DNA of 64,000 nt from the NCBI GenBank assembly GCA_946055075.1, contig CAMGEN010000004.1, positions 3,522-67,521 on the forward strand. Direction: 5' to 3'. A program made the position numbers and the translations under genes. The notes below the pieces were generated by a model that saw only the letters and a program-made list of their open reading frames with translations, did not search any database and was not told where the DNA came from. The number at the start of each line of letters is the position of its first letter. Positions within the stretch are counted from its first letter, which is position 1. Origin of the DNA: an uncultured Verrucomicrobiota bacterium (GTDB lineage: Bacteria; Verrucomicrobiota; Kiritimatiellia; RFP12; UBA1067). This document shows, piece by piece, positions 18,066 to 48,771 of the stretch.

Positions 18066-18076
18066 ACTAGGGAAAT

Positions 18077-18153: not shown

Positions 18154-18230
18154 ACACGGGATTTTGAGCTGCTAAGCCGCAAAACATTGTATAGTATACT
18201 ACTTTTGCCCCTGATGAGTCAAGTGGGATA

Positions 18231-18239
18231 TGGTATAAT
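18231..18239 (+). promoter_or_regulatory. Extended -10 box TGgTATAAT upstream of the helicase gene
   Basis: tggtataat lies 56 nt before ATG 18296. The leader contains the heptamer array 18244-18271. Confidence 0.45.
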
Positions 18240-18243
18240 ATTA

Positions 18244-18271
18244 GTGAATAGTGAACAGAGAACAGTGAACA
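18244..18271. repeat. Tandem heptamers GTGAATA GTGAACA GAGAACA GTGAACA (intergenic)
   Basis: Read directly from the sequence. Confidence 0.85.
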
Positions 18272-18295
18272 AGTTTTGGAACGGCTTTTCCGCTA

Positions 18296-23524: not shown

Positions 23525-23567
23525 AATCAGGTGCGGGTTAGCGGTGTAGTGCAATGTCAAATGACTG

Positions 23568-26652: not shown

Positions 26653-26680
26653 AAAATCGCCACATGAAAGGCGATTTTTT
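26653..26680 (+). terminator. Rho-independent terminator
   Basis: AAATCGCC-acatgaaa-GGCGATTT with a T-run. Confidence 0.8.
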
Positions 26681-26688
26681 GCTATAAT
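26680..26688 (+). promoter_or_regulatory. Extended -10 box TGcTATAAT, 8 nt before the ATG (leaderless geometry)
   Basis: The last T of the terminator T-tract is the T of TG. tgctataat-accatact-ATG(26697). Confidence 0.55.
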
Positions 26689-26696
26689 ACCATACT

Positions 26697-27725
26697 ATGA
26701 AATTGAAAGAGTTACTGTTCGCGTCCGTTTTGGCCGCGACTGTCACTGGTGTAGCCGCGCCGGGCGTTGGGCATGGTCCCGACGCACGATATGCCACTGA
26801 TGCGTTTCCGGGTTTCGATCTAGAGGAAGGAAATTTCAAGCCTTCGAAGAAGGAGCCGAGCTGGTTTTCGTTTATTTTCGGCCCGAAGATGGAGACGCCC
26901 GTTGCGCAATTCGCCTGGGCGGCGGAGCTGGAATCGAACGGTTCCATCTCTCGTGCTCGGCGTGCTTATGATGCGCTGGTTCGGGAGTGGCCGGCTGCTC
27001 CGGAGGCGTGCAAGGCGCAATTAAAGGTCGCCGAGTTGTACGTATCCGAGCTTGATTACGAGGAGGCGTTCAAGGAGTATCGTTATCTGCTAGATTTCTA
27101 TTCGTCGCAGTGTGATTTTGCCATGGTTTCCGACGAGATGTACAAACTGGCGGAGATCATGCGGGAAGAGGGGAAGACGATTGTGTTCTTCAATTTTCGC
27201 AATACAACCGATGTCCGCCGTGCATACGAGTCGCTGGTGCTGCGTGCGCCTGGCGCCTCCTTCACGCCGAAGGCGATGTTGACAATTGCGGAATTGCGTG
27301 AAGACGAGGATCAGTTGTACGAGGCGGTAGCGGTGTACGAGAATCTTCGTAATCTCTATCCTGTCGGCGAGGAGTCGACGGAGGCTGCATACCGTGAAGC
27401 GCGTACGCGCATGAATATTGTTCGTCGGCACGAATACAATCGCAACCGGGTACGGGATACCGCGGCGTTCTTGCGGCAGACGCTCACTGGGGTAGTTTTG
27501 CCTGAGGGGCGGGTGGCGGAGTTGCATGAGTGGCTGCGCGAGACCGAGGCGATCCTGGAGGACGAGGCCTGGAATGCGGCGAAGTTCTATGATTCGAGGA
27601 CGCGCACAAAGCGTAGTGCGATTAACGCCTATGGGGTGTTTCTCAAGGATTATCCTGAGGGGGCGCATGCAGCTGAGGCGCGAGCCCGTATTGACGAGCT
27701 TTCTAACGGAGGAGAATTGAAATGA
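26697..27725 (+). CDS. Secreted TPR-like protein (BamD/YfiO-like, tentative)
   Basis: Signal MKLKELLFASVLAATVTGVAAP. Helical-repeat composition. Family assignment is weak. Confidence 0.45.
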   Translation: MKLKELLFASVLAATVTGVAAPGVGHGPDARYATDAFPGFDLEEGNFKPSKKEPSWFSFIFGPKMETPVAQFAWAAELESNGSISRARRAYDALVREWPAAPEACKAQLKVAELYVSELDYEEAFKEYRYLLDFYSSQCDFAMVSDEMYKLAEIMREEGKTIVFFNFRNTTDVRRAYESLVLRAPGASFTPKAMLTIAELREDEDQLYEAVAVYENLRNLYPVGEESTEAAYREARTRMNIVRRHEYNRNRVRDTAAFLRQTLTGVVLPEGRVAELHEWLRETEAILEDEAWNAAKFYDSRTRTKRSAINAYGVFLKDYPEGAHAAEARARIDELSNGGELK

Positions 27726-28240
27726 AGCGGTTTCTGGCGGTGGCTTTACTGGTGTTATCAGTTTCCGGTTGCGCTTCATATACCTGGACGTCGTCCGTAC
27801 CATCGAAGATGCGCTCGGTGCAGGTTCCAACCTTCCGTAACGAATCTTCGCTTACGGAGTCGGCGTCATTAGTGACCCGGCAGGTTCTTAGGGAGTTCCA
27901 GCGAGAGGGAACTTTCAGCCTGATGTCCGATGGTGCTGCGCTCGAGATCCAGGGAGCGGTGACGGAGGTGTCAACATACGGAGTGGAGACGAATTACCGC
28001 ATCGGCTCACGGTATTACGGCGGGACGATGCGGATCGTCGCCATGGTGTCGGTTATCGACAAACTTAACGGGCGGATTCTGATTGACAACCGTGTTTATG
28101 TTGGAGAGGCGCCGTTTTCGTCTGGGCACGACAGTACGACGGCTCTTCGTGATGCAACCGCTCGTGCAGCCGACTTGCTTGCGCAGCATGTAGTTGATGA
28201 CGTGCTCAAGATGGATTTCAATGCGAAAACGGAGAAGTGA
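27722..28240 (+). CDS. Small lipoprotein (LptE-like, tentative)
   Basis: MKRFLAVALLVLSVSGCAS lipobox. ATGA overlap with the upstream gene. Size and position next to a BamD-like gene suggest the assignment. Confidence 0.45.
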   Translation: MKRFLAVALLVLSVSGCASYTWTSSVPSKMRSVQVPTFRNESSLTESASLVTRQVLREFQREGTFSLMSDGAALEIQGAVTEVSTYGVETNYRIGSRYYGGTMRIVAMVSVIDKLNGRILIDNRVYVGEAPFSSGHDSTTALRDATARAADLLAQHVVDDVLKMDFNAKTEK

Positions 28241-28545
28241 ATATGAATGACGTTCATGCGGTTATCGAGCTTAAGATCACGCCACAGCGTGACTGCGGTT
28301 TCGGAAAGCTTGCCGAGAGGGTGTCCAAGTTTGATCAGGTGGAAGCGTGTTTTTTGATGTCCGGCGCCTACGATCTGCTCGTCTTCGTCAAGGGAGACAG
28401 TCTTCAGGATGTGGCGCAATTCGTCGCGCAGGACCTGTCCACGATTGACGGGGTGGTTTCGACGGCGACCCATTTCATGCTTAAAACTTATAAGGCTAAG
28501 GGCGTTGCGGAGTCGCTTGGAGATGACCGCATCGCGATATCGTAA
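28237..28545 (+). CDS. Stand-alone Lrp/AsnC ligand-binding (RAM) domain protein without an HTH
   Basis: VIELKITPQ...FDQVEACFLMSGAYDLLVFVKGDSLQDVAQFV...IDGVVSTATHFMLKTYK is the AsnC_trans_reg pattern. Start is GTG 28237 or ATG 28243. Confidence 0.65.
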   Translation: MNMNDVHAVIELKITPQRDCGFGKLAERVSKFDQVEACFLMSGAYDLLVFVKGDSLQDVAQFVAQDLSTIDGVVSTATHFMLKTYKAKGVAESLGDDRIAIS

Positions 28546-28554
28546 GGAGGGTCT

Positions 28555-29934
28555 ATGGCAGTCGATTTGGCACAGAAGGCCCAGAACTTCACTAATCGCG
28601 GGCGTCAGGCTCTCGAGACTGGCAAGTATGATCTTGCCGTTGATATGCTGATGGAGGCGGTGTCTGCGGCTCCCGACGTCTTGGAGACGCGCAAGCTTCT
28701 CCGGGCGGCGCAGATAGCGAATTTCAAGCGTAATGGCAAGGTCGGTTTCGGGGCGAAGCTCGGTTATATGATGGCTCGCCAGAAGATCATGGGCCTTGTA
28801 AAGAAGGGGCGTGGCGCAGAGGCGATGTTGGAGGCTGAGAAGCTGCTTTCGCTCAATCCGCTCGACCCCGATAACATTGAGGCTGCGGTTAAGGCTGCGG
28901 AGGCTGCTGGGCGCGCCGATGCTGCGGCGCTGACGATTGAGGCGGCGTACGAGTGCTCGAATAATGACCCTTCGTTGTTGGAGCGTGTCGCCACCTATTA
29001 TACGATGGCCAATCGCTGGGAGAAGGCGCGTGACGCCTATCTTAAACTTGCCGAGCTTAAGCCCGGCGACCAGCGTATCGTCCAACTTCTCAAGAACACC
29101 GAGGCTCGTGCGACGATGAACTCCGGGTGGGAGCAGACCGCTGGCAAGAAGGGCGGCTTCCAGAATTTGATCGCGAATAAGGAGCAGGCCGCCAAGCTTG
29201 ATGCTGCGAACAAGGCCGTCGTCACCGGGGACGACGCGGAGTTGCTCATCAAGGAGAAGCTTGAGCAAATCGCGAAGGAGCCGAAGAACATGAACGCCCG
29301 TCGGGCGCTTGCGAGAATCTACACGCAGTCCAAGCGCTATGAGGAGGCGGTCGCTGCCCTTGAAGAGGCGATTCAGGTCAATGGCGCGATGGATCCTGAG
29401 CTTGACCGCATGCTCTCGCAGACTCGAATCCTTTACTATGATCAGGTCATTGATGCCTGGCGTGCCCAGGGAGACGAGGATACGGCTCAGCAGATCGAGG
29501 CCGAGAAGAACCAGTATGTTCTCGATGATCTTGCGCAACGTGTCGAACGTTATCCGAACGATCTACACCTGCGTTATCTTTTGGGCGTCCAGTACTACAC
29601 TTACGAGTATTATGACGAAGCGCTTGAGCAGCTTCAGCATGCGCAGAAGTCTCCGAAGGACCGTCTGAGTTCGCTCTACTATCTCGCGATGTGCTTCCTT
29701 GCCAAGGGCCAGAACGATATGGCGGTGATGCAGCTCGAGACAGCGCGCGATGCGATTCCGACGATGGATGATCTGAAGAAGAAGGTGGTTTACCAGCTCG
29801 GTCGTTGCGCCGAGGATGCCGGAGAGCTTGACAAGGCGTACCAGTACTATAAAGATGTTTATTCCACCGATATCGGCTTCGAGGATCTCTCGGAGCGCAT
29901 GATGTCCGTCTCCCAGAAACTCAAGGCCAAGTAA
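28555..29934 (+). CDS. TPR repeat protein
   Basis: Repeated A-x-x-x-Y/ A-L-E-x-A helical pairs throughout. No signal peptide seen. Confidence 0.65.
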   Translation: MAVDLAQKAQNFTNRGRQALETGKYDLAVDMLMEAVSAAPDVLETRKLLRAAQIANFKRNGKVGFGAKLGYMMARQKIMGLVKKGRGAEAMLEAEKLLSLNPLDPDNIEAAVKAAEAAGRADAAALTIEAAYECSNNDPSLLERVATYYTMANRWEKARDAYLKLAELKPGDQRIVQLLKNTEARATMNSGWEQTAGKKGGFQNLIANKEQAAKLDAANKAVVTGDDAELLIKEKLEQIAKEPKNMNARRALARIYTQSKRYEEAVAALEEAIQVNGAMDPELDRMLSQTRILYYDQVIDAWRAQGDEDTAQQIEAEKNQYVLDDLAQRVERYPNDLHLRYLLGVQYYTYEYYDEALEQLQHAQKSPKDRLSSLYYLAMCFLAKGQNDMAVMQLETARDAIPTMDDLKKKVVYQLGRCAEDAGELDKAYQYYKDVYSTDIGFEDLSERMMSVSQKLKAK

Positions 29935-29937
29935 CCG

Positions 29938-32262
29938 ATGATATCCACAATTCTTCTCGCCGCGACCTGGATCTCCGGCGTTAACCCCGAGCTTCACACC
30001 TATAATCGCGAAGGCGAATGCGGAACTGGTGCGGTCGTGCCGTGGGCCGGCTCCCTCTGGGCGATCTCCTATGCTCCGCACATGCCGAACCGGTCGACGG
30101 ACAAGCTTTACGAGATCAAGTCCGACTTCACCAAGGTCGTCCGCAAGGAGTCCATCGGCGGCACGCCCGCGAACCGGCTCATCCATGACGAGTCGAATCA
30201 GCTCTTCATCGGTCCGTATGCGATCGACGCCCAGGGCGGGGTCCGGGTGATGGACACGATCAATCCCGACGGCACGACCAATCTCTACGGACGGCTCACC
30301 GCCTCTGCTCGGCATCTCTTCGAGCCGGCGAAGAAGATCTACACGATGACGATGGAAGAAGGCGTATACGAGATCGACGTCGATACCCTCAAGGTCACCG
30401 AGCTCTTCCGCGACGGTAACATCCAGGGGTATGGCAAGCATGACGGCGTGCTGCTTCCAGGGTACCACGGCAAGGGCGGTTATTCCGGTCAGGGCCGGCT
30501 CGTCTACGCCAACAACGGCGAGTTCTCGCCGGCGGCGATGAAGGATCCCACGACCGAGGCCGGCGTGCTTGCGCAGTGGAACGGCAAGCCGGGCGCGGAG
30601 AATTGGCAGGTCGTGCTTCGCAATCAGTTCACCGACATCACCTCGAAGGGCGGCATCCATGGTGCGAAGGATCCGGCTAAGGATCCGCTGTGGGCGATCG
30701 GCTGGGACTACCGCAGTGTGATCCTGATGATTCTCGAGGATGGTGGCTGGCACAAGTACCGTCTTCCGAAGGGCTCCCATTCCTACGACGGAGCGCATGG
30801 TTGGAACACTGAATGGCCGCGAATCCGCGAGATCGGCGAGGGTGACGACTTCCTCATGACGATGCACGGGACCTTCTGGCATTTCCCCGCGACGATGAGC
30901 GTTGGAAATTCCGCCGGTATCCGTCCGCGCTCCAACTACCTCAAGATCGTCGGCGACTTCTGTCGCTGGGGCGACAAGGTGGTGCTCGGCTGCGATGATA
31001 CGGCGGCGAACGAATTCCTCAACAAGCGCATGGCGAAGGGCAGGATGGGAGGCCCTGGGCAGTCCAACAGCTCGCTCTGGTTCCTTGATCCTTCCGCCTT
31101 CGACACGTTCGGCCCGGCCATCGGCCGCGGCGCGGTCTGGTACGAGGATGACGTGAAGGCCGGTCAGCTCTCTGACCCCTATCTGCTTGACGGTTACGAG
31201 AGTCGCACGCTTTACGTCGCTGGGGACCTCGACTTCGACGTCGAGGTGGACGAGAAGGGCGACGGCACGTGGGTGAAGACGGGTCTCAAGAAGCGTTCCG
31301 CGGGCATTTATGATCTCAAGTTCGTGAAGGGCGCGTGGATCCGTCTTGTCGCGAACAAGGACGCCGAGAAGGTGACGGCGTTCTTCAATTACGCGAACTT
31401 CGATCGTCGTGCGGTTGCGAAGGCGAAGACCGTCGAAAGCCGCGGCATCCTCCGTTCGGGGAAGGGTGATGAGAACATTCCGCTTGAATACGGCGTCGGC
31501 GATTCGCTTTACGTGATGCTCCCGGAGAACGGGGAACTCAGGCTGAAGAAGTCCGGCGACGCCGCGGAACTCGCTGATCTGCGCAAGAATTTTGCGATCG
31601 ATCTGGCGGAGAAACTCGGCGACGAGTACGATGCCGCTTCCGCGGTCATCACTGATGACGACGGCAGGCGCTGGCGTTTCCCGTATGCGACGAAGGAGCC
31701 GCGGACCGGACGGCTCTGCCGCGAGTGCTGCACCGAGCGCGACCTCCTCAATCTCGCGGGCGTGATTTACGAGCTGCCGGCCGAGAACGCGGGCGGTTAC
31801 GCGAAGATCCGCGCGGTCTCGACGCCGGGCGAGTGGATGTACGACTACTGCACGTGGCGCGGGCTCTTCATCATCTCCGGAATCGTCCCAGAAGGGGATT
31901 TCGGCAAGGTCGTGAAGTCCGACGACGGCAAGGCTCAGCTCTGGGTCGGCGTTGCCGACGACCTCTGGAAGTTCGGCAAGCCGACGGGTATTGGCGGCCC
32001 CTGGAAGGACACCGAGGTCAGGCAGGGCGTTCCGTCCGATCCTTATCTGATGACCGGTTTCGATGAGAAATTCCTTACCGTTTCGTCCGATAAGGGAGCT
32101 AACGTCACGATCGAGCTCGACATCACCGGTACTGGAACATGGATTCCGTTCCGTACATTCAAGAGTGCAGACCGCATCAACATTTCGAATATCCGCGCTT
32201 ACTGGCTGCGTGCCGTCGCGGACCGTGATTGCAAAGCCACAGTTCAACTGGAGTACAAGTAA
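29938..32262 (+). CDS. Conserved-looking hypothetical protein (774 aa) with an internally duplicated C-terminal module
   Basis: Long ORF with normal composition, 3 nt after the upstream stop. Two modules, SDPYL(L/M)xG(Y/F)...GTW...(W/Y)(I/L)R(L/A)VA(N/D)xD, at about 31171-31392 and 32031-32259. Confidence 0.7.
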   Translation: MISTILLAATWISGVNPELHTYNREGECGTGAVVPWAGSLWAISYAPHMPNRSTDKLYEIKSDFTKVVRKESIGGTPANRLIHDESNQLFIGPYAIDAQGGVRVMDTINPDGTTNLYGRLTASARHLFEPAKKIYTMTMEEGVYEIDVDTLKVTELFRDGNIQGYGKHDGVLLPGYHGKGGYSGQGRLVYANNGEFSPAAMKDPTTEAGVLAQWNGKPGAENWQVVLRNQFTDITSKGGIHGAKDPAKDPLWAIGWDYRSVILMILEDGGWHKYRLPKGSHSYDGAHGWNTEWPRIREIGEGDDFLMTMHGTFWHFPATMSVGNSAGIRPRSNYLKIVGDFCRWGDKVVLGCDDTAANEFLNKRMAKGRMGGPGQSNSSLWFLDPSAFDTFGPAIGRGAVWYEDDVKAGQLSDPYLLDGYESRTLYVAGDLDFDVEVDEKGDGTWVKTGLKKRSAGIYDLKFVKGAWIRLVANKDAEKVTAFFNYANFDRRAVAKAKTVESRGILRSGKGDENIPLEYGVGDSLYVMLPENGELRLKKSGDAAELADLRKNFAIDLAEKLGDEYDAASAVITDDDGRRWRFPYATKEPRTGRLCRECCTERDLLNLAGVIYELPAENAGGYAKIRAVSTPGEWMYDYCTWRGLFIISGIVPEGDFGKVVKSDDGKAQLWVGVADDLWKFGKPTGIGGPWKDTEVRQGVPSDPYLMTGFDEKFLTVSSDKGANVTIELDITGTGTWIPFRTFKSADRINISNIRAYWLRAVADRDCKATVQLEYK

Positions 32263-33662
32263 TGAAAGCTAAACTGACTGTTACCGTCAACGAACAGACC
32301 AAGGCGTACGTGTTACCCGAGCAAGGCGTTAAGATCGGGCGCGATCCTGGGCAGTGCCAGTTGGCGCTGCAGGATCCGAACGTCTCCTCGCTTCATGCTT
32401 TCATCGCATGCCGTAAGGGACAGTGGGTGTTGCAGGATATGAATTCCACGAACGGCACGTTCGTGAATGGCGCGAAGATCTCGACCGTTGGGCTTAAGAA
32501 TGGCGATCGTATTAAGTTCGGCACGACTGTTCAGGCGAAGATCGAGATCGAGGAGCCGAAGAAGGAGGTCGCGGTTCATAAGGAGGAGCCTAAGGCTCCG
32601 GCGCCCGAAGTCGCCAAGACTTATATCAAGGTTGATAATACCCCGCCGCCCGAGATGAGTGCGGACGATGTGGCGCTCATCAAGTTGCTCAATGAGAAGT
32701 TTCAGCTTGCCAAGGAGAACCTTTCGCAGGTGGTTATCGGTCAGATGGATGTGATCGAGCTTGTCCTCACTGCGATTTTTGCCCGTGGTCATGTGCTGTT
32801 GATGGGTGTCCCCGGGCTCGCAAAGACGCTCCTTATCTCCACGCTTTCCAAGGTGCTCGACCTTGAGTTTAAGCGCGTGCAGTTCACCCCCGACCTGATG
32901 CCTTCCGACATCACCGGTACTGACGTCCTTGAGGAGGACAAAGAGTCCGGAGGTCGTAAATTCCGCTTCGTCGAAGGCCCCGTGTTCACCAACATGTTGC
33001 TTGCCGACGAAATCAACCGTACGCCGCCGAAGACTCAGGCCGCGCTGCTTGAGGCGATGCAGGAACACCACATCACCGTCGGCTCCCACACCTACAACCT
33101 GCCCGAGCCGTTCTTCGTCATGGCGACCCAGAACCCGATCGAACAGGAAGGCACCTATCCGCTGCCGGAAGCGCAGATGGACCGCTTCCTTTTCAATATC
33201 ATCGTCAAGTACCCCGGTGCAGAGGACGAGGAGACGATCATCCGGAACGTCACTTCCAATCATAAGGTCAAGCTCGAGAAGGTGCTCGACGGCGAAACGG
33301 TGATGAAGCTCCAGGACGTCGTCAAGCGCGTCCCCGTCGCCTCCCACGTCATCAAGTACGCGACGACCCTCGCGCGCATGTCGCGTCCAAAGGAGCCGGG
33401 CGTTCCAGAGTTCGTCAAGGAGCTCGTCGGCTGGGGAGCTGGCCCCCGTGCGGGCATCTCGCTCATAACCGCCGCGAAGGCGTGGGCAATTCTGCACGGA
33501 CGTCATCATTGCACGATGAAGGATGTCGCCGCGATTGCGATGCCGGTGCTTCGTCACCGCGTGATCACCACTTTCGCCGCTGAAGCTGCGGGCGTGACAT
33601 CCGACGATCTCGTGAACATGATGCTCAAGGAGCTCAAGCCCACTCTCGACCTGGAGATCTAA
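32262..33662 (+). CDS. FHA domain fused to a MoxR-type AAA+ ATPase
   Basis: N-terminal VKIGRDP..CQLALQDPNVSSLHAFI...WVLQDMNSTNGTFVNG (FHA). Then VIGQMDVIELVLTAIFARGHVLLMGVPGLAKT and LLADEINRTPPKTQAALLEAMQE (MoxR/AAA_3). Confidence 0.8.
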   Translation: MKAKLTVTVNEQTKAYVLPEQGVKIGRDPGQCQLALQDPNVSSLHAFIACRKGQWVLQDMNSTNGTFVNGAKISTVGLKNGDRIKFGTTVQAKIEIEEPKKEVAVHKEEPKAPAPEVAKTYIKVDNTPPPEMSADDVALIKLLNEKFQLAKENLSQVVIGQMDVIELVLTAIFARGHVLLMGVPGLAKTLLISTLSKVLDLEFKRVQFTPDLMPSDITGTDVLEEDKESGGRKFRFVEGPVFTNMLLADEINRTPPKTQAALLEAMQEHHITVGSHTYNLPEPFFVMATQNPIEQEGTYPLPEAQMDRFLFNIIVKYPGAEDEETIIRNVTSNHKVKLEKVLDGETVMKLQDVVKRVPVASHVIKYATTLARMSRPKEPGVPEFVKELVGWGAGPRAGISLITAAKAWAILHGRHHCTMKDVAAIAMPVLRHRVITTFAAEAAGVTSDDLVNMMLKELKPTLDLEI

Positions 33663-34598: not shown

Positions 34599-34601
34599 GC
34601 T

Positions 34602-37433: not shown

Positions 37434-40114
37434 TCCGTACCGACCTGTTGCCAGAGACGATGCAGCTATGGATCATTGCGGTTCTCGCGGTGTTCGGTAT
37501 CGGGGCGTGGGTCTGCTGTCATTGGGCGGTCAAACGTTATCTTACCAATAAGTTCAACGTCTGGTATCGTGCGCTTTTTTCAATTCCGCTCGGCACGATC
37601 GCCTCGTGGCTTGTGCTCCAGACGCTCGGGCGTATGATGTTTCTGGCCACGCACTGGTCGTTGTTCTTCGGTTCGATTCTTTCGGCTTTTTCGATTGAGG
37701 CGGTTAGCGCCTTTTACGCGCATGAATGCGCGCGCGTTCCTCCCAGAATCGCGAAGATTCTTGTTGCTTGTCGCATGGCTGCGGTGGCGATCGTGTTGCT
37801 CGTCTTGATGCAGCCGGTGATTATCTCCGACCGCGATCGTGAGGTCAAGCAGCGTGTTGTGATTCTCATTGATGATTCCGCGTCCATGCATTTCAGCGAC
37901 AGGCAGTTGACGGACGACGAGAAGAAAGATATCACTGAAGCACTCGGATTGAATGCTTTCCCCAAGAACGGGATGACCCGCGCCGAAATGGTGCGTCAGC
38001 TCCTCCATAGGGGTGGTGAGAACGCGTTCCTCAAGAAGATTCGGGAGAATTTTCATGTCGATATCTTTCGCTTCGGTAACGGCATTCGTCGCAAGGAACA
38101 GGTCGATGACGAGGAACTGCTTTCCGCTTCAGAGAAGATGTTCAGGTCCGTAACCGACCTTGCCAAGGCCCTCGAGCTTGTCGTCAAGAACGTACCTGCG
38201 GAGGAGATCACTGCTATCCTCATTTTCACCGACGGACGGCATAACGGCGACGCTGGCGTTGAATCCATCGCCCGTCGTCTTGGCGGCTATGGTATTAAAG
38301 TGAGTTCGGTGGTTGTTGGTGGTTCGATTAAGCCGTTCGATATCGCCATCTCCTCGGTGGACGCGCGCGAGTCGGTGTTTCTCGGTGATAAGATTCGTTT
38401 TTCGGTCACCGTTTCCGCGACGGGAGCTAATGGAAAGAAGGGGCGTATCGCCTTCAAGAACGAGAAGGGCGACCAGCTTGACGAGCAGGATTTTACGATT
38501 GAAGGTAACGAATGGGCGAAGGAGTTCCGGTTCGTCGACCTGCCGAAGGAGCAAGGAGTTTATCAGTATTCATTCGATATCAAGCCAGTGGCAGGAGAAC
38601 TCTTCGATGACAATAACTCCCGAGAGATGGATGTCGCAGTCTCAGACGACCGTACCAACGTCCTGCTTGTTGATGGCCGTCCGCGGTGGGAGTACCGTTA
38701 TCTGCGCAACCTTTTTTACGGACGCGATAAGTCGGTGCATCTGCAGGACTGGATTGTCCACCCGGACATGGTATTCGGCGTTCCTGTCAAGATTCGCGAA
38801 CCCGCTTCGGCCTCTCGTCCTTTCGGCGATTCCGAAGCCGGCGAGTGGCCGGTGCAGGATAACGACTGGCGTCAGTTCGATGTCATTATCATTGGAGATG
38901 TGGACGAGAGTGTCTTCACGGATGAGGCTATTCAGCAGCTTAAGTACAATGTGGAGGAGCGAGGAACGCTATTGGTGTTCATCGCGGGATCTGAATACAT
39001 GCCGATGACCTATAAGAATCCTGCCTTGCGCGATCTCATGCCGATCGAGTACACTCCGGACGGACAGAGCCACCGTGTCGCGCCAGAAAACGATTTCGTC
39101 TTCCAGCTGACTGCGGCGGGTCGTGGACATCCGGTAATGAGTCAGTCGTCTTCAAGTGCTGAGAACGAAGAGATCTGGCAGAATATTCCTGATTTCCATT
39201 GGCGTCTGCCGATCCAAGGTGTGAAGCCTGGTGCCGATGTTCTGGCGTATGCGAAGCCTCGTGGCGAAGACGGCAAGGTCAGTCAGCTGGCCGCGCAAGC
39301 CGAGACTATTGCAGCCTCTATCGAAGATGATCCGGAAGCGGCGCTCAAGCGGCTCGAGGAGATGCGTTCGGAGCAGGCGCGTCACGCGCTCGTCGTCTCG
39401 CAGATGAAGGGTAAGGGACGCGTCCTCATGCTTACGACGGATAACATGTGGCGGCTTCGTTCGAAGGCTGGCGACCAGCTGCATCACCGCTTCTGGGGTC
39501 AGGTTATGCGATGGGGCGCGGGTGAGAAGCTGCGTACTGGCAACCATTACGTGCGTATCGGCACCGATCAGTTGCGCTATGGCGCGGGTGAACCGATCAA
39601 GGCGTTCGCGAGGTTTCTCGACGACAAACATAACGGCTTGAATGACCTTAAGCCAAAGATTATGCTCATTCCGCCTGAGGCTAGCAGCGGTCGTACATAC
39701 TCCTTGCGACTCCGCCCTGATTCAAACGGCTTTTACGAGTGCGACCTGCCTGGTTGCGCCAAACCGGGAGTTTATCGTTTGCGGCTTGAGTGCCCTGCGG
39801 CCAATGAACGTCTCGGCCGGCGTATGCCGCCGGCGCTTGAGACTTCGTTCGTGGTCGTTACCACCAAACGTCCCGCCGAAGAGGTTGACATCACCTCGAC
39901 CCGCAACCAGGTCGAGCGGATCGCGGCTTCGACGGGAGGAAAAGTGTTGAAGCCGACGGACTACATAAAACTCTCCTCCGATCTCGGCGGCGGATCGAAG
40001 ACGCTCTCGGATCGTGTTGAATACCAGCTGTGGTCCACGCCTCCGCTCTTCATCCTGGTTATCCTGTTGGTCACCGCAGAGTGGGTGTTGCGTAAACGTT
40101 CTAACCTTTCCTGA
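37418..40114 (+). CDS. Multi-TM vWA-domain protein (Bat-operon type)
   Basis: GGAGGAG Shine-Dalgarno sequence and a 16-nt overlap with the upstream gene. N-terminal TM cluster. VVILIDDSASMH (vWA). FDVIIIGDVDE...GTLLVFIAG (amidotransferase-like fold pattern). C-terminal TM segment. Confidence 0.7.
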   Translation: MDQNVVRTDLLPETMQLWIIAVLAVFGIGAWVCCHWAVKRYLTNKFNVWYRALFSIPLGTIASWLVLQTLGRMMFLATHWSLFFGSILSAFSIEAVSAFYAHECARVPPRIAKILVACRMAAVAIVLLVLMQPVIISDRDREVKQRVVILIDDSASMHFSDRQLTDDEKKDITEALGLNAFPKNGMTRAEMVRQLLHRGGENAFLKKIRENFHVDIFRFGNGIRRKEQVDDEELLSASEKMFRSVTDLAKALELVVKNVPAEEITAILIFTDGRHNGDAGVESIARRLGGYGIKVSSVVVGGSIKPFDIAISSVDARESVFLGDKIRFSVTVSATGANGKKGRIAFKNEKGDQLDEQDFTIEGNEWAKEFRFVDLPKEQGVYQYSFDIKPVAGELFDDNNSREMDVAVSDDRTNVLLVDGRPRWEYRYLRNLFYGRDKSVHLQDWIVHPDMVFGVPVKIREPASASRPFGDSEAGEWPVQDNDWRQFDVIIIGDVDESVFTDEAIQQLKYNVEERGTLLVFIAGSEYMPMTYKNPALRDLMPIEYTPDGQSHRVAPENDFVFQLTAAGRGHPVMSQSSSSAENEEIWQNIPDFHWRLPIQGVKPGADVLAYAKPRGEDGKVSQLAAQAETIAASIEDDPEAALKRLEEMRSEQARHALVVSQMKGKGRVLMLTTDNMWRLRSKAGDQLHHRFWGQVMRWGAGEKLRTGNHYVRIGTDQLRYGAGEPIKAFARFLDDKHNGLNDLKPKIMLIPPEASSGRTYSLRLRPDSNGFYECDLPGCAKPGVYRLRLECPAANERLGRRMPPALETSFVVVTTKRPAEEVDITSTRNQVERIAASTGGKVLKPTDYIKLSSDLGGGSKTLSDRVEYQLWSTPPLFILVILLVTAEWVLRKRSNLS

Positions 40115-40125
40115 TTCGAAAAGCC

Positions 40126-43100
40126 ATGTATGATACCAAGAAGATACCTCCGGCGGTAGCGAAGATTCTGAAAGCGAGTCTTTCGCGCATTCGACACATT
40201 ATCTTGTTTCGCGGCATCTGTGCTACACTCGCCGTTTTTATCGCATCTGTTCTCGCGATCATGGCGATTGATGCGATGGTCACGATCTACTCAAACTGGG
40301 TCCGTTGGATGCTCTGGTGCGGTGTTGTCTCAGGTACTGGTTCAGTAGCCTGGTTCGCGCTTATTAAGCCGCTACGTCGCAAGATCTCGCTTTCTGATGT
40401 CGCACTCTTGATAGAGCGTAATCATCCTGAGCTGGAGGAGCGTCTGTCGACGGTCGTGGAGCTTGCGGAAGAGGGGCGGGGGGGCGAGGTGTGGTCCAAG
40501 GAACTTGTCAATGAGATCACCAAGCGCGCGATTACGGACGCTACCAAGGTCTCGCCGAAGAAGGAGTTCACCTCGCGTACGATCAAGCCCCGGTTCATCG
40601 TCGCCGCCGCCGCGGTGTTGGTCCTGCTCGGGCTCTTCGCGGCGTTTCCGACTGCTACCGCGCGACTCGTCGCGCGTGCGCTGATGCCAGCCGCCGAGGT
40701 CGACAACATCTACGCCTCGTCCCTGAAGGTTGCTCCCGGCGACCAGGTGCTGCTCGCCGGCAGCTCCTTCAAGGTGTCGCTTGCGGTCAACGGCGGCTTC
40801 CCGTCCAAGGCGTTCGTCCGCACTTCGGTGAACGGCAGGAGCGAGGCGGTCGAGCGCATGGTCCGCATGACCGAAGAGGAGGCGAAGGGTCCAATCTTCT
40901 ACGAGTTCGACTATCCTTCGGTTCACGAGAGTTTCACTTATCGCGTCAACTGTGGCAGCGCCCTCACCAAGGCGTACAGCGTGAAGGTGGTCCCGACCCC
41001 GACGTTCGTCGACCGGAAGATCCGCATCGAGCATCCTGCGTATACGGAGCGCAACCCGACCGAATACACCAACTCCGCCGAGGTCGTCGCCGTTCCTGGA
41101 TCGAGGGTAGTGATTTCGTTTAGAAAACCGCGCGAGGACATCACTGGTTACATTAAGATCCCCGGCGACTGCATCCTCGAGGCGGAGCCCGTCGGTGAGA
41201 ACGGGCTTGCCTTCGCCTTCGATGTCGGCAAGGATATGGACGGCATGTGGTCTGCGATGGCGCAGGATTCCAACGGCTTCTCGAATCAGGTCGTCTCCTC
41301 CGCGGTCACGGTTGCGAAGGACACTCCGCCCTCGGTCGAGCTTACTGTGCCGGAAACGGCCGAGATCAAGCTACCGCGTTCGGGAGTCCTGCCGGTGGAG
41401 TTCAAGGCCAAGGACGACTTCAAGGTCGCAAAGGCGGTGCTTGAGATCGCGGTCGGCACTGCCGACTACAAGGATCTGCGCGAGTTCGAGCTGTCGCAGG
41501 GACAGGACGGATACGTCGTCGGCTCCGAGATGGTGTCGATCCTCGCGCTCGGTTCGCGCCTCGGCAAGTCTGCCGCATTCCAGGTGCGCGTGCGGGTCGA
41601 AGACAACCTTCCCGAGGAACTCGGTGGACCAGGCGTCACGCGCTCCTCGTCCGTCCTCGTCGAACTTCAGACCAAGGGGCAGAACGGCAGCGACGGCGGC
41701 AAATCGCTCGGCCGGCAGGAGCTGCAGAAGCAGATCGAGGAGACCAAGAAGGAGTCGGAGGACATCCGCAGGACGCTTGAGACCGCGATGCGGCACATGG
41801 AGAACGCCAGGAACGGATACCGTCATACGAACAATCCCTGGAATCTGAACGACGCTAAGAAGAACCACGATCTCTGCAAGACCCATATCAGCAACGCGGA
41901 AGGCCTTTTCGCTGATTTCATCCAGAACCTGCTCGACACCAGACTGTCCACGGGCGCGGAGATCCTCCGCCCGGTGATGGACCGGCATCTCGTCCCCGTC
42001 CGCCAGGAGGTGGAGGATATCTACCTCGTCGACATCTCCTCTCGGTATGGCCCTGCGTGCAAGTGCTACGATCATTTCAAGGAACTCATGAAGGCGTATG
42101 ACGAGGCGCTCAAGAAATACCAGATTCTCACCAAGACCGCTGAGGACATGCAGAAGCTGGAAGACCTCAAGGAGCAGCAGGAGGCGTTGGCTGAAGCTGC
42201 TGAGAAGGGCGAGATGAGTCCGCAGGAGCTTGGCGACGCCGAGAAGCAGCTGATGGACGAGATGCAGAGGGAGCTGCAGGACGACATGCAGCGTTCGCTT
42301 GACAAGGAGATCGAGAAGGCGGAGAAGATCGCCAAGCGGATGGACGAACTCGCACAGAAGCAGAAGGATATCAAGGAGAAGATGTCCGGCGACGAACAGA
42401 AGAACTCCGAAAACCAGCTCGCCCGCGAACTCGAGAACCTGGTGCGTGAGACCGACAAGCTGCTCCAGGACGTCGAGAAGCAGACCGGGATCCCGGAACT
42501 GGACGAAAGTAGGACGGCGGAACCGCTTGAAAGCACCAAATGGAGTCAGGAGGATGCGACCGACAGCGCCAAGGATGCGGCGAAGAACCTCGGAGAACAG
42601 AAGAACGAGGAAGCCAAGGCCAACATGGATGAAGTTTCGGAGGCGCTCAGCCAGGCCAAGGAGCAGCTGACCGAAGCCCAGAACCGTATGAAGCAGGCCA
42701 ACGAGCGCTTCGCCAACGAGGCGAAGGAGATGCAGGAGCTGATGAACAAGATTAACGAGGCCATGCAGGCGGCGATGGAGGCGGCGAAGGCCGAGCTCGG
42801 CAATCAGCAGATGTCGCAGGAGCAGATGGAGCAGATGGCTCAGCAGGCGGCAGAACAGATGGCGGGTCAGGAGAAGATGTCTCCCGAACAGAGGAAAGCG
42901 ATGCTCGAGGCGATGAAGGAGAGTCTGGCGAACATGACTCCCGAGCAGGCGAAAGCGATGGCCGACGCGATGAAGGAGTCCATGAAGCAGGCGATGGAGC
43001 AGATGAAGCAGGAGTTCGGTAAGCTCTCGCCGGAAGAGCTCAAGGCGAAACTCGGCGAAATCGCAAAGCAGGCCGCGCAGGAGATGCAGCAGCAACAACA

Positions 43101-43578
43101 GCAGTCGCAGTCGCAGCAGCCGCAGTCGCCGGAGATGCAGCAGATGCAGCAGAAGTTCGAGTCCGCGGCCGAGATGATGAAGCAGCAGATGCAGCAGATG
43201 ATGCAGCAGCAGAATATGCCCCAAGAGCAATTCCAGCAACAGCAGATGCAGCAGCCGCAAAACCCGATGCAGCAGCAGATGCAGCAAATGCAGCAGAATC
43301 AGCAGAATCAGCAACAGCAGCAGGACCAGCAACAGCAGCAACAGGAGCAACAGCAGAGCAGTCAGAGCCAGCAGGAGAACCAGCAGCATCAGCAGTCTCA
43401 GAGTCAGACCAGTAATGTTCGCGAGGCTCTCGGTGAGGATGACGGCGTGGACTGGTTCCGCATGAAATCTTCTTCCTCTTCCGGTGCCGAAGCTGATCCT
43501 ATGGATGATGTTCCGAGCGAATACCGCGGATTGGTCCGTGACTATTTCAAGGCTCTCAATCAAGGAGGCAAAAAATGA
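40126..43578 (+). CDS. Membrane protein with a long coiled-coil and a Gln/Glu/Met-rich low-complexity C-terminal half (DUF4175-like)
   Basis: Two N-terminal TM segments followed by LLIERNHPELEERLSTVVEL. About 400 aa of E/K/Q coiled-coil. A Q-rich tract from 43081 to 43400. Terminal EYRGLVRDYFKALN. Confidence 0.7.
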   Translation: MYDTKKIPPAVAKILKASLSRIRHIILFRGICATLAVFIASVLAIMAIDAMVTIYSNWVRWMLWCGVVSGTGSVAWFALIKPLRRKISLSDVALLIERNHPELEERLSTVVELAEEGRGGEVWSKELVNEITKRAITDATKVSPKKEFTSRTIKPRFIVAAAAVLVLLGLFAAFPTATARLVARALMPAAEVDNIYASSLKVAPGDQVLLAGSSFKVSLAVNGGFPSKAFVRTSVNGRSEAVERMVRMTEEEAKGPIFYEFDYPSVHESFTYRVNCGSALTKAYSVKVVPTPTFVDRKIRIEHPAYTERNPTEYTNSAEVVAVPGSRVVISFRKPREDITGYIKIPGDCILEAEPVGENGLAFAFDVGKDMDGMWSAMAQDSNGFSNQVVSSAVTVAKDTPPSVELTVPETAEIKLPRSGVLPVEFKAKDDFKVAKAVLEIAVGTADYKDLREFELSQGQDGYVVGSEMVSILALGSRLGKSAAFQVRVRVEDNLPEELGGPGVTRSSSVLVELQTKGQNGSDGGKSLGRQELQKQIEETKKESEDIRRTLETAMRHMENARNGYRHTNNPWNLNDAKKNHDLCKTHISNAEGLFADFIQNLLDTRLSTGAEILRPVMDRHLVPVRQEVEDIYLVDISSRYGPACKCYDHFKELMKAYDEALKKYQILTKTAEDMQKLEDLKEQQEALAEAAEKGEMSPQELGDAEKQLMDEMQRELQDDMQRSLDKEIEKAEKIAKRMDELAQKQKDIKEKMSGDEQKNSENQLARELENLVRETDKLLQDVEKQTGIPELDESRTAEPLESTKWSQEDATDSAKDAAKNLGEQKNEEAKANMDEVSEALSQAKEQLTEAQNRMKQANERFANEAKEMQELMNKINEAMQAAMEAAKAELGNQQMSQEQMEQMAQQAAEQMAGQEKMSPEQRKAMLEAMKESLANMTPEQAKAMADAMKESMKQAMEQMKQEFGKLSPEELKAKLGEIAKQAAQEMQQQQQQSQSQQPQSPEMQQMQQKFESAAEMMKQQMQQMMQQQNMPQEQFQQQQMQQPQNPMQQQMQQMQQNQQNQQQQQDQQQQQQEQQQSSQSQQENQQHQQSQSQTSNVREALGEDDGVDWFRMKSSSSSGAEADPMDDVPSEYRGLVRDYFKALNQGGKK

Positions 43579-44615
43579 TGAATAAGCGTCTGACATTGGT
43601 GCTTTCACTAGCCGTTCTTCATTCTTTACTCTTTACGCTTCGGGCCGCGCCAAAGGAAGATGAAGTTGATATGGCGATTGAGCGTGGGCTCACCTATCTC
43701 CTCAACGTCCAGAAGCCGGACGGAAGTTTCCCGGGAGAGTGCCCCTGTGCGATGCCGGCACTTGCGGGCATGGCTTGTCTCGCCAAGGGACACGTTCCGG
43801 GAGACAAGAAGTACGGGCAGCTTATTGAACGTTCGCTGGACTTCATTCTCTCGCATCACGACGAGACCGGATATTTCGGTAAGCAGGGTGGAGGCAAGAT
43901 GTATTCCCACGCGATCTCGACGTTGTTTCTTACTGAGGTCTCTGGCATGGTCTCGAAGGAGCGCCAGGCGCAGATTGATGAGTGGCTTCCCAAGGCGCTT
44001 AAGGTGATCATTGATGCTCAGCGCGTAAAGAAGAACGGCTATAATGTCGGCGGCTGGCGTTATGAGCCTAATTCGTCCGACTCCGACCTCTCATGCTCAG
44101 GCTGGAACCTGATGGCGCTCCGGTCTGCTCGTCTTAATGGCGCCCAGATTCCCGATATCGTCATCAAGCGCGCCGTCAAGTACATGCACGCGCATCACAA
44201 CAAGAAGGACGGCAATTTCTGCTATCAGGGCAGCAACGGCAGCAACGGCGTCACGCTTTCCGGCGCTGGCATTCTCTGTCTTGAGCTCTGCGGCAGCCAT
44301 GAGGATCCGGATTCGCTCGATGCCGCCAAGTATCTGGTGGGCGTCTACAAGGAGAAGATGCCGGAACAGGGCTTCATGTATTACGGCGTGTATTACGCCG
44401 CGCAGGGGCTCTTCCAGCTCGGTGGTCAGTACTGGAAGGATTACGAGGATTGGATGTATTCTACCTACTTGCCGCGACAGCGGGAGGATGGCTCCTGGCC
44501 GCCTCATCACAACGAGCGTTCACAGGTGTACTGCACGGCGATGACCATACTGGCATTCTCCGTCCCCTATCGCCAGCTCCCCGTGTATCAGCGTGACGAA
44601 ACCGTCGACGAATGA
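43575..44615 (+). CDS. Secreted prenyltransferase/squalene-oxidase repeat protein (terpenoid cyclase-like alpha/alpha toroid)
   Basis: Signal peptide. Repeats QKPDGSFPG, ETGYFG, GGWRY and REDGSWPP. ATGA overlap with the upstream gene. Confidence 0.7.
   Translation: MMNKRLTLVLSLAVLHSLLFTLRAAPKEDEVDMAIERGLTYLLNVQKPDGSFPGECPCAMPALAGMACLAKGHVPGDKKYGQLIERSLDFILSHHDETGYFGKQGGGKMYSHAISTLFLTEVSGMVSKERQAQIDEWLPKALKVIIDAQRVKKNGYNVGGWRYEPNSSDSDLSCSGWNLMALRSARLNGAQIPDIVIKRAVKYMHAHHNKKDGNFCYQGSNGSNGVTLSGAGILCLELCGSHEDPDSLDAAKYLVGVYKEKMPEQGFMYYGVYYAAQGLFQLGGQYWKDYEDWMYSTYLPRQREDGSWPPHHNERSQVYCTAMTILAFSVPYRQLPVYQRDETVDE
43613..43640. repeat. Heptamer array CGTTCTT CATTCTT TACTCTT TACGCTT in the signal-peptide coding region
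   Basis: Read directly. The first 14 nt are identical to 48819-48832. Confidence 0.6.
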
Positions 44616-44624
44616 ACCGCTGAC

Positions 44625-44662
44625 AGTTGGGCGGTTGAGAGTTGGGAGTTGAGAAGTTGAGA
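44625..44662. repeat. Tandem 7-8 nt array AGTTGGGC GGTTGAGA GTTGGGA GTTGAGA AGTTGAGA spanning the intergenic region and the TonB start
   Basis: Read directly. Confidence 0.8.
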
Positions 44663-45295
44663 TTCCCGATTGCAATCTTGATTTCGCTGGCGGTCCATCT
44701 GTTGATCGGACTTGCCATCTGGGGGTATATGGAATATGCTCCTTCACCTGATGTTCTTGCGACCCTCGATCTTTCCAGCGTCGAACTGTCCTTTGCGGAG
44801 GAAGAAGACGATTCCGCGGCGATTCTGCCGCAGCCGTCGGTTTCGACTCCTTCGCAAACGGAACCAGAAAGACCTCCGGTGCCTAAGATCGCGGAAACGC
44901 CCGAGCCGTTACTGTCTATTCCCGATGCGGTCGAAATCCCTAAGCCCGTTGAAAAGCCGACCCTCCCGGCATTCCGCGCCCCGCACCCTGCACCTGTCAC
45001 TCCAGCACCCGTCCAGGCCCGCGTCGATGCGCCTCCGCGTCCGAAGCGTGCGATTAGACCGGACTATCCGAAGGGCTCGCGCCAGCGAGGCGAGCAGGGC
45101 GATGTTGTTGTTGAGATGATGGTGAATCCGCAAGGCGAGGTCGATGAGGCGACGGTAGTGTCTTCGAGCGGATTCGTGGAGCTTGACGAAGCCGCGCTCC
45201 GCGCGGTCCGTTTCGCGAAGTTCACGCCAGCAAGATCCAGTGGCGAGACCGTCGCCTCCATTGCCCGCATTACCCTGGCCTTTAAGCTTAAGTGA
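44642..45295 (+). CDS. TonB-family energy transducer
   Basis: N-terminal TM segment, a Pro-rich linker, and the C-terminal TonB domain RPDYPKGSRQRGEQGDVVVEMMVNPQGEV...AALRAVRFAKFTPA. TTG start, either 44642 or 44657. Confidence 0.75.
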   Translation: MGVEKLRFPIAILISLAVHLLIGLAIWGYMEYAPSPDVLATLDLSSVELSFAEEEDDSAAILPQPSVSTPSQTEPERPPVPKIAETPEPLLSIPDAVEIPKPVEKPTLPAFRAPHPAPVTPAPVQARVDAPPRPKRAIRPDYPKGSRQRGEQGDVVVEMMVNPQGEVDEATVVSSSGFVELDEAALRAVRFAKFTPARSSGETVASIARITLAFKLK

Positions 45296-45342: not shown

Positions 45343-45351
45343 TGGTATAAT
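45343..45351 (+). promoter_or_regulatory. Extended -10 box TGgTATAAT, 6 nt before the ATG (leaderless geometry)
   Basis: tggtataat-gagggc-ATG(45358). Confidence 0.55.
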
Positions 45352-48759: not shown

Positions 48760-48765
48760 TATAAT
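48757..48765 (+). promoter_or_regulatory. Extended -10 box TGaTATAAT whose TGA is the receptor stop codon; 6 nt before the ATG
   Basis: TGA(48757-48759)TATAAT-accaat-ATG(48772). Confidence 0.55.
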
Positions 48766-48771
48766 ACCAAT

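Follow-up and report, generated by a model that had tools for sequence, protein, structure and literature searches.

A twelve-gene block of an uncultured Kiritimatiellia bacterium: a probable composite transcription unit with a variant MoxR-DUF58-vWA envelope module and passenger genes

Introduction

Among bacterial gene neighbourhoods without a known mechanism, few are as widespread as the 'Bat'-type clusters, in which genes for a MoxR ATPase, a DUF58 protein and von Willebrand factor A (vWA) proteins lie together. A 64,000-nucleotide (nt) stretch of contig CAMGEN010000004.1, from an uncultured Verrucomicrobiota bacterium of the Kiritimatiellia (here called the window; positions refer to it unless another sequence is named), raises the question of which genes belong to such a system. 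It holds a block of twelve tightly packed genes, numbered 1 to 12 here. Among these are a MoxR ATPase carrying a forkhead-associated (FHA) domain (gene 6), a DUF58 protein (gene 7), two large membrane proteins with a vWA-type metal ion-dependent adhesion site (MIDAS; genes 8 and 9), a DUF4175-like membrane protein (gene 10) and a secreted alpha/alpha-barrel protein (gene 11). A first-pass annotation of this DNA had suggested that the twelve genes form one regulated, TonB-energised system spanning the cell envelope. Is the block one machine, or does a smaller system lie within it? Among the papers listed by a literature search, none mentions Kiritimatiellae together with MoxR, von Willebrand or aerotolerance terms.

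The answer that we favour, and hold to be rather probable, is that the block is a composite transcription unit that carries a Planctomycetes-Verrucomicrobia-Chlamydiae (PVC) variant of the Bat/cmd-type MoxR-DUF58-vWA envelope module, made up of genes 6-10 and usually gene 11, the rest being passengers.

Results

A six-gene order is conserved around the MoxR core

Gene 9 is central in the block, so that 10-kb flanks around its homologues reach genes 2-12, and it served as the anchor for our comparison. The set comprises eight independent context loci, with gene 9 homologues at 41-66% identity, and 80 metagenome loci at 30-69% identity; fractions for the metagenome loci count only those with enough flank for the gene in question. 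Gene content, order, domains and conservation are direct observations in this comparison. The order of genes 6-11 (MoxR, DUF58, gene 8, gene 9, gene 10, gene 11) is kept in 8/8 context loci wherever the contig allows. Among the metagenome loci, gene 8 accompanies the gene 9 homologue in 48/52, gene 7 in 39/42 and gene 6, upstream of that homologue, in 29/35. A gene 10 homologue follows in 39 of 60, a count for which tblastn is limiting since gene 10 is only 24-48% identical between loci. Gene 11 is present in all seven context loci that extend far enough and in 16 of the 27 metagenome loci whose downstream flank measures 8 kb or more; it is a usual, not a universal, member of the module.

Around this order the context loci differ. 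Their upstream flanks are mutually unrelated (MurC and BPL; a heparinase-like gene and EamA; NikA; opposite-strand carboxylases; an autotransporter; purine genes; cytochrome c and a tetratricopeptide repeat (TPR) gene), as are the genes downstream (NusG, a fucosidase, thymidylate kinase, radical-SAM genes). The expanded Bat-like core that the first-pass annotation had described is thus borne out: MoxR, DUF58 and BatA_N/vWA proteins are present, and genes 9, 10 and usually 11 travel along with them. The PA14 domain is likewise a common part of gene 8, this region being aligned in 44/58 gene 8 homologues that reach the C-terminus. Synteny of the accessory genes with the MoxR core, also expected there, is seen for genes 8-10 and usually 11, is lacking for genes 1-4 and 12, and for gene 5 is confined to the closest relatives.

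Homologues of gene 9 occur in Kiritimatiellae and also in Luteolibacter, Haloferula and Roseibacillus. The close ones belong to Kiritimatiellae metagenome-assembled genomes from gut and rumen samples, and the window itself matches metagenome contigs in the European Nucleotide Archive. One divergent locus comes from the Verrucomicrobiales; the gene 9 homologue there shares 89% identity with a Luteolibacter luteus protein. In cultured L. luteus (CP051774.1) all six module genes are present, in order, and there is no gene 5.

The FHA domain of gene 6 is more narrowly distributed. The first-pass annotation had counted this phospho-threonine reader among the parts of the system; the fusion is confined to a minority of lineages, the FHA part being aligned in 3/34 metagenome MoxR matches. 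Seven context loci include MoxR; the domain is present in four of them, besides the window, and absent from L085, L089 and L090. In L. luteus, two genes beyond gene 11, a stand-alone 215-amino-acid (aa) FHA protein (Yop-YscD_cpl + FHA) is encoded on the - strand (17655-18302 of that locus, L172). Because this gene lies near gene 11, the link between FHA and the module gains independent support.

Five of the six module families are also clustered on plasmid 1 of Gemmatirosa kalamazoonensis (L091; NZ_CP007129.1, 725978-751048), an unannotated 1.1-Mb replicon of a member of the Gemmatimonadota. The order there is a gene 9-like gene, TPR/Peptidase_MA_2, MoxR, DUF58, BatA_N/vWA/GATase1-like and DUF4175-like, then two MacB/FtsX-type permeases. 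This neighbourhood differs from the module in that it has no gene 11 homologue and that the gene 9-like gene precedes the others instead of separating BatA from DUF4175; identity values range from 23 to 51%. Since the DUF4175-type protein and the second MIDAS protein are linked in Gemmatirosa as well, they belong to an old neighbourhood wider than PVC, gene 11 being the PVC addition.

Genes 1-4 and 12 do not travel with the module

As part of the composite-unit reading as a whole, and with the confidence that we give to it, we take genes 1-4 and gene 12 to be co-transcribed passengers outside the conserved module. Gene 1 lies 10.7 kb upstream of gene 9, outside the flanks of the metagenome loci, and was scored in the context loci only, where it is absent next to the core in 8/8. 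Genes 2 and 3 are each found near the core in 0/18 metagenome loci with enough upstream flank and in 0/8 context loci. Gene 4 has one weak match among 19 metagenome loci and none in the eight context loci. The TonB gene (gene 12) stands beside the core in 0/27 metagenome loci and in none of the context loci, and the block encodes no ExbB or ExbD. The earlier view of the twelve genes as one system is not supported by these counts, in which genes 1-4 and 12 essentially never occur with the core; neither energisation by TonB nor a part for the AsnC-like gene as small-ligand sensor of the system finds comparative support.

The pair of gene 1 and gene 2 is itself kept elsewhere, as neighbours at 46% and 40% identity in a locus that has no MoxR module (L005, 10145-11625). 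Unrelated TPR genes recur by modules of this kind: a large TPR gene stands upstream of MoxR in L090 and in Gemmatirosa.

Pfam and NCBIfam profile searches reproduced the domain calls of the first-pass annotation, apart from a correction on gene 1. The similarity of this protein to TPR and BamD families stands, but it falls short of BamD itself: it has a signal peptide and no lipobox cysteine, and among NCBIfam models YbgF (54.9 bits) scores as well as BamD (TIGR03302; 52.8 bits against a cut-off of 81.4), both below cut-off.

The block is bounded as a probable single unit in a densely packed window

We computed intergenic distances from the gene starts called on the identical public contig. 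From gene 1 to gene 12 the successive gaps are -4, +2, +9, +3, -1, 0, +3, -16, +11, -4 and +26 nt. All twelve open reading frames are where the first-pass annotation had placed them, on the + strand, and the limits that it gave for their spacing hold (at most 26 nt, and at most 11 nt at all junctions but the last); its count of six overlaps does not, as there are four, or five if gene 3 starts at the GTG at 28237.

Hairpin folding and a motif scan confirmed both a fused terminator-promoter ahead of the block and the next promoter at 45343 (Table 1). The consensus terminator scan had overlooked the hairpin, probably since its T-run sits in the stem; folding recovered it. The TGNTATAAT pattern, to which the boxes at both ends of the block conform, has nine copies in the window against 0.43 expected, and 9/9 lie on the + strand just 5' of a gene start (2491, 15329, 18231, 20939, 26680, 45343, 48757, 55827 and 57623). 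An ATG follows only 6-11 nt 3' of the copy in six of the nine cases, a spacing that suggests that operon-first genes are translated from leaderless mRNAs; the box-to-ATG distance of gene 1 seems to fit such a message. Internal genes carry GGAGG-type sites. Between 26680 and 45343 no copy of TGNTATAAT (with up to one mismatch) lies near any gene start, and the terminator scan gave no terminator-like sites in the intergenic gaps of the block. Because the promoter motif and the hairpin bound the block and no such motif stands inside it, the twelve tightly packed genes are probably read as one transcript.

The tight spacing of the block is not exceptional here: across the whole window the gaps have a median of 9 nt, and 29 of the 43 do not exceed 26 nt. 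Throughout the window (1-64000), GC skew is positive and all real-looking genes of at least 200 aa lie on the + strand, which would fit a long leading-strand stretch. The promoter-bounded unit upstream (promoter at 20939) combines PolyA_pol (CCA-adding-type), a TPR protein, MlaE, MlaF, MlaD and a 450-aa unknown, and the one downstream combines RmuC with a TonB-dependent receptor. Since these neighbouring units mix unrelated genes, sharing one operon is weak evidence of shared function in this DNA. The client of the gene 12 TonB may be that downstream receptor rather than the MoxR module.

Two features of the flanking units deserve mention. At 22778-26652, MlaE, MlaF and MlaD are followed by the 450-aa protein, which has no family match, and the hairpin closes the unit. 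At 46642-49845, directly after the TonB-dependent receptor, lies a second secreted prenyltransferase/squalene-hopene cyclase (SHC)-like protein, of 357 aa, with about 25% identity to the gene 11 orthologues of other loci; the gene has a TGATATAAT box of its own at 48757, and ABC ATPase and FtsX permease genes come next.

Domain architecture of the module proteins

The MoxR protein (gene 6) has an intact Walker A motif, GVPGLAKT, and is also matched by AAA_5. In the DUF58 protein (gene 7), the MIDAS motif (DxSxS) reads DCSGS at residue 94 and is invariant in nine orthologues; the protein has no transmembrane helix and no signal peptide and reads as cytoplasmic. By analogy with known MoxR partners, it is a probable adaptor for the MoxR ATPase. 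We considered an FHA-specific phospho-threonine site in DUF58 and rejected it: an N-terminal TTAT motif is kept with or without the FHA domain of MoxR.

Gene 8 scores 46.8 bits with Pfam BatA, 63.4 bits with TIGR02226 and 39 bits with VWA_2; CARDB and PA14 are also matched, and its MIDAS reads DGSSS. For gene 9, which may correspond to BatB, the second vWA membrane protein of Bat operons, the profile matches are weaker (Pfam VWA_2 at 17.6 bits, below cut-off, and weak VWA/MG2 matches). Its AlphaFold2 model (mean predicted local distance difference test score, pLDDT, 84.3) has a vWA-like fold with invariant D152, S154, S156, T246 and D272, and a CARDB-like sandwich that matches the CARDB domain of PF1109 with a target-normalised TM-score of 0.74-0.83. 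A whole-protein fold match for gene 9 was sought and not obtained, the search returning domain-level CARDB and beta-sandwich matches only.

Genes 8 and 9 share one layout, namely a short N-terminus, four transmembrane helices with basic loops, a large domain block, a C-terminal transmembrane helix and a basic tail, and show weak profile similarity over the transmembrane region and the MIDAS strand. The two look paralogous, and their domain blocks are predicted, from sequence, to be periplasmic and clamped to the membrane at both ends; we place them in the periplasm because CARDB and PA14 are extracytoplasmic domains and because this orientation follows from the positive-inside rule. This placement matches that of Borrelia BB0173, a BatA-like protein whose vWA domain was found experimentally to be periplasmic (PMC5700661).

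Gene 10 combines N-terminal transmembrane helices with a region rich in beta structure, some 500 residues of coiled-coil or low-complexity sequence rich in Q, E and K, and a conserved C-terminal motif; its orthologues range from 1060 to 2186 aa. At about 42750-43400 the gene has imperfect CAG/CAGCAA-type repeats, and AT skew jumps to +0.29 (window 42000-44000) owing to the Q/E/K-rich coding. Gene 11 matches SQHop_cyclase_C at 27.4 bits over 107 of 319 profile positions, and cyclase sequences of the PDB at E ~2e-3. As a full cyclase or prenyltransferase it falls short, with 24-40 bits against NCBIfam cyclase models whose cut-offs are 323-851, and its translated sequence has no catalytic DxDD (class II cyclase) motif.

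Table 1. Features of the twelve-gene block and its boundaries in the window.
Feature	Position	Strand	Description
Gene block	26697-45295	+	12 genes, 18.6 kb; all open reading frames present
Terminator-like hairpin	26651..26680	+	11-pair stem, -13.8 kcal/mol, z = -5.1 against shuffles; ends upstream unit
Extended -10 box TGCTATAAT	26680..26688	+	Hairpin runs straight into box; gene 1 ATG 8 nt downstream
Gene 1	26697..27725	+	Secreted TPR protein, BamD/YfiO- or YbgF/CpoB-like; Pfam YfiO 26.3 bits
Gene 2	27722..28240	+	LptE-like lipoprotein; Pfam LptE 31.7 bits; lipobox LSVSGC
Gene 3	28243..28545	+	Stand-alone Lrp/AsnC ligand-binding (RAM) domain without helix-turn-helix; AsnC_trans_reg 57 bits over whole 100 aa
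Gene 4	28555..29934	+	TPR protein by TPR family matches; no signal peptide, reads as cytoplasmic
Gene 5	29938..32262	+	774-aa exported beta-propeller + beta-sandwich protein of a widespread unnamed family
Gene 6	32262..33662	+	FHA-MoxR AAA+ ATPase (MRP-type AAA_3); AAA_3 216, FHA 73, AAA_lid_2 64 bits
Gene 7	33663..34598	+	DUF58, vWA-like, 143 bits; also matches VWA_2
Gene 8	34602..37433	+	Inner-membrane protein: BatA_N double transmembrane segment, two more transmembrane helices, vWA, CARDB, alpha/beta region, PA14, C-terminal transmembrane helix
Gene 9	37418..40114	+	Second inner-membrane MIDAS protein: four N-terminal transmembrane helices, vWA-like domain, CARDB-like sandwich, alpha/beta domain, second sandwich, C-terminal transmembrane helix
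Gene 10	40126..43578	+	1150-aa DUF4175-like membrane protein; DUF4175 21.4 bits; L085 orthologue has DUF4175 on record
Gene 11	43575..44615	+	Secreted 346-aa protein, single alpha/alpha barrel length, prenyltransferase/SHC-type repeats; signal peptide
Gene 12	44642..45295	+	TonB: N-terminal anchor + TonB_C 74 bits
Extended -10 box TGGTATAAT	45343..45351	+	Next TGNTATAAT copy after 26680; heads unit of RmuC + TonB-dependent receptor

Gene 5 belongs to a widespread exported family with glycan-related neighbours

Searches of Pfam, NCBIfam and PDB sequences gave no match for gene 5. Its AlphaFold2 model is confident (pLDDT 89.9; predicted TM-score 0.91) and consists of beta-propeller and beta-sandwich domains; a more specific fold was sought with Foldseek against the PDB and not obtained, as generic propellers alone were returned, at a TM-score of ~0.25. 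Clustering at 90% gives 7265 relatives, and clustering at 50% identity gives 1302 clusters. Within the family, identity stays near 50% across Kiritimatiellae, Verrucomicrobia, Planctomycetes, Acidobacteria, Abditibacteria and Bacteroidota. Its members carry signal peptides or lipoboxes. Eleven residues (E27, R80, H177, K179, N193, D257, E292, R295, D340, E596 and E600) are invariant even at 34% identity, a pattern that looks like that of an enzyme. In some homologues sulfatase and SGSH_C domains are fused on, and one of these also has an F5/8 type C domain. A fusion of gene 4 to gene 5 was looked for among the long homologues (~1200-1360 aa) and dismissed: their N-termini are sulfatase, WD40, TSP3 or FecR and have no similarity to gene 4.

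To place gene 5 relative to the module, we scanned one genome per species, giving 80 loci (L003-L082) at 47-69% identity from Kiritimatiellae, Verrucomicrobia, Planctomycetes, Abditibacteria, Acidobacteria, Omnitrophota, Runella and Chitinophaga. Neither gene 4 nor any of genes 6-10 lies within 10 kb of the gene 5 homologue in any of these genomic loci (0/80), and gene 5 is therefore no general partner of the MoxR core. Its neighbours in other genomes are instead enriched in AraC regulators, sulfatases, GFO/IDH/MocA oxidoreductases and SusD. The Bacteroidota copies (Runella and Chitinophaga) stand right after SusC/SusD in 3/3 cases, one of them being followed by NamZ and a heparinase II/III-like gene. 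Upstream of MoxR, gene 5 is confined to the window and its closest relatives from the gut (L083, L087 and L096); among metagenome loci with enough flank it was found in 1/21. It is probably a separate glycan-related protein that neighbours the module in the closest relatives only.

Discussion

A working model for the module

How might the six proteins work together? MoxR-class ATPases act with a VWA partner whose finger enters the pore of the ring, and the ring twists or stretches this partner to remodel a target; the authors of the NorQ/NorD work propose finger-in-pore twisting as general for MoxR/VWA couples (PMC9976466, PMC13036017). The block has the features of such a couple: an AAA core with lid and Walker A motif, and an adjacent MIDAS partner of vWA fold, the DUF58 protein, that is present in 39/42 loci. 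By this analogy, we infer both the MoxR-DUF58 coupling and a role in the envelope. Gene 6 would form a cytoplasmic MoxR (AAA_3) hexamer that serves as the motor of the module; DUF58 would plug the ring, as NorD does that of NorQ, and hand ATP-driven twisting or pulling on to genes 8, 9 and 10 through their short loops and tails on the cytoplasmic side. In this way a MIDAS-mediated complex in the periplasm may be assembled or remodelled in support of envelope integrity; gene 10 would act in it as a long spacer, and gene 11 as a soluble partner. In the gut lineage, the N-terminal FHA domain would put the ATPase under Ser/Thr-phosphorylation control, as the fusion and the FHA neighbour in L. luteus both suggest.

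We favour envelope integrity as the role of the module because mutants of the Rhizobium cmd genes show envelope and morphology defects, as cited in PMC5700661. There, cmdA-cmdD (RL3499-RL3502) of Rhizobium leguminosarum is described as a broadly conserved MoxR/DUF58/membrane-vWA operon. It consists of four genes, comes from the Alphaproteobacteria and is likened to our module by description only.

Relation to known systems

Among the closest known systems are the Bat operons of Bacteroides fragilis, Borrelia (BB0170-BB0176) and Leptospira (batA/B/D), with which the module shares a MoxR AAA_3 protein, a DUF58 protein and a BatA_N double transmembrane segment with a vWA/MIDAS domain in a same-strand cluster. 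Unlike these operons, it has neither a BatD family protein nor a conserved TPR or SH3 partner of BatC/BatE type; its vWA proteins are 900-aa multi-domain proteins (CARDB, PA14, alpha/beta domain, C-terminal transmembrane helix), and it adds a DUF4175-like coiled-coil protein and a secreted alpha/alpha-barrel protein. What is known is thus the MoxR/DUF58/BatA_N-vWA triad common to Bat and cmd operons; what is new here is the large multi-domain MIDAS proteins and the DUF4175-like and alpha/alpha-barrel additions.

NorQ/NorD and RavA/ViaA likewise pair a MoxR-class hexamer with an adjacent VWA/MIDAS partner, and cryo-electron microscopy shows the finger in the pore and a twisting force on the linker (PMC9976466, PMC13036017). 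These couples differ from the module in that each serves a defined enzyme (NO reductase, fumarate reductase), by metal insertion or another action, whereas the block encodes no such target, and in that the partner in the module is DUF58 rather than a canonical VWA protein.

The PFNA cluster of bifidobacteria consists of a Ser/Thr kinase, an FN3 protein, a MoxR-type ATPase, DUF58 and a transglutaminase-like protein. It ties MoxR and DUF58 to Ser/Thr-kinase signalling, in parallel to the FHA fusion and the FHA gene of L. luteus; it differs in its Gram-positive host and its other membrane partners, and no kinase is encoded in the block.

An equivalence with MUL1 of Akkermansia muciniphila (Amuc_0543-0550; mul1A = amuc_0544) was also considered and dropped; the window comes from the Kiritimatiellae, not from Akkermansia, and indirect statements speak against equivalence. 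MUL1 resembles our block as a multi-gene, same-strand envelope locus of a PVC gut bacterium and is said to encode a periplasmic complex for glycan uptake. One paper, however, groups Amuc_0546 with four transporter classes (by list order, with the 'biopolymer' transporters), and another says that MUL1 resembles a Sus system and has no synteny in aquatic relatives.

Weighing the alternatives

The reading of the first-pass annotation, in which all twelve genes build one regulated, TonB-energised machine reaching from the inner membrane to BamD and LptE, draws on the one promoter and one hairpin that bound the block, on junctions that overlap or are near zero, and on the fact that most of the products are envelope proteins. 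We nevertheless judge it highly improbable: genes 1-4 and 12 essentially never accompany the core, the flanks differ in every lineage, tight packing and mixed-function units are the rule in the window, and the block has no ExbB/ExbD to go with its TonB. Hardly better placed, and in our view quite improbable, is a Bat-type aerotolerance system, a periplasmic complex that would protect an anaerobe from oxidative damage. The MoxR, DUF58 and BatA_N/vWA proteins shared with the bat region of B. fragilis speak for it, as does a host from a gut anaerobe lineage; yet the twelve proteins include no BatD family match and no conserved BatC/BatE-type TPR partner, and the module occurs also in Luteolibacter, which is aerobic. 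The aerotolerance role itself was not reproduced in Leptospira (PMC3557215).

Two further explanations turn on gene 5. One would make genes 5-11 in gut Kiritimatiellae a periplasmic complex for glycan capture or processing, loosely likened to the periplasmic mucin-utilisation complex reported for Akkermansia, in which gene 5 is an enzyme or binder, the PA14 and CARDB domains bind glycan and MoxR drives assembly. Gene 5 does abut MoxR, or lies within ~60 nt of it, in four related lineages; its family occurs in SusC/SusD loci, by sulfatases, AraC, heparinase-like genes and NamZ, and as sulfatase fusions; and gene 8 has PA14 and CARDB domains. We still think it unlikely, with a MoxR-core neighbour in 0/80 genomic gene 5 homologues, gene 5 in 1/21 loci and absent from L. 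luteus, and no carbohydrate-active enzyme among the conserved members of the module. The other, a MoxR-vWA-beta-propeller ternary system of conflict or defence with gene 5 as the propeller, was suggested by a Pfam bpMoxR match of gene 6 (43.6 bits) between a beta-propeller gene and a vWA-like gene. It is effectively refuted: the AAA_3 score of gene 6 is far above that of bpMoxR, bpMoxR is also recorded for MoxR proteins from modules that lack gene 5, the gene 5 product is exported and its gene stands without a MoxR neighbour in 80/80 genomes, and PADLOC gave no match for genes 5-11, so that membership of a known defence system was set aside as well. Judged from its sequence relations, the module appears to be neither TonB-coupled, nor a defence system, nor the bpMoxR ternary system.

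Several observations also weigh against the composite unit with a six-gene envelope module that we prefer. Genes 10 and 11 were not detected in Roseibacillus, which keeps the first four genes, and gene 11 is missing in one sublineage. In L097 (4726-6228), whose gene 9 is 66% identical, two major facilitator superfamily transporter genes take the place of MoxR upstream of DUF58, so that the module does not always have a MoxR gene next to it; N-masking was checked as an explanation for such odd loci, with a negative result. Conversely, gene 5 adjoins MoxR in four lineages (the window and three relatives), and a functional tie is possible in that clade. As to the single transcript, the 11 same-direction genes of the Leptospira bat cluster have independent promoters, and as to the role, Leptospira bat mutants have no envelope, growth or oxidative-stress phenotype (PMC3557215). 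Finally, MoxR and DUF58 are cytoplasmic whereas a periplasmic location is predicted for the MIDAS domains of genes 8 and 9, and the step that couples them across the membrane is drawn by analogy.

What the module and gene 5 may tell

With the preferred reading, the real members of a Bat-type cluster are separated from passengers in one large example, and a six-gene PVC set is defined. The same six-gene set is present in cultured L. luteus, for which a complete genome is available, making genetic and structural tests practical. Though we give it a small chance only, gene 5 may found a new, strongly conserved and very widespread exported glycan-active family that was recruited to the MoxR/vWA module in gut Kiritimatiellae; if so, Bat-type modules would point to ATP-driven periplasmic scaffolds for polymer handling. 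With its strong glycan-utilisation context, the gene 5 family may be a more rewarding target than the module itself.

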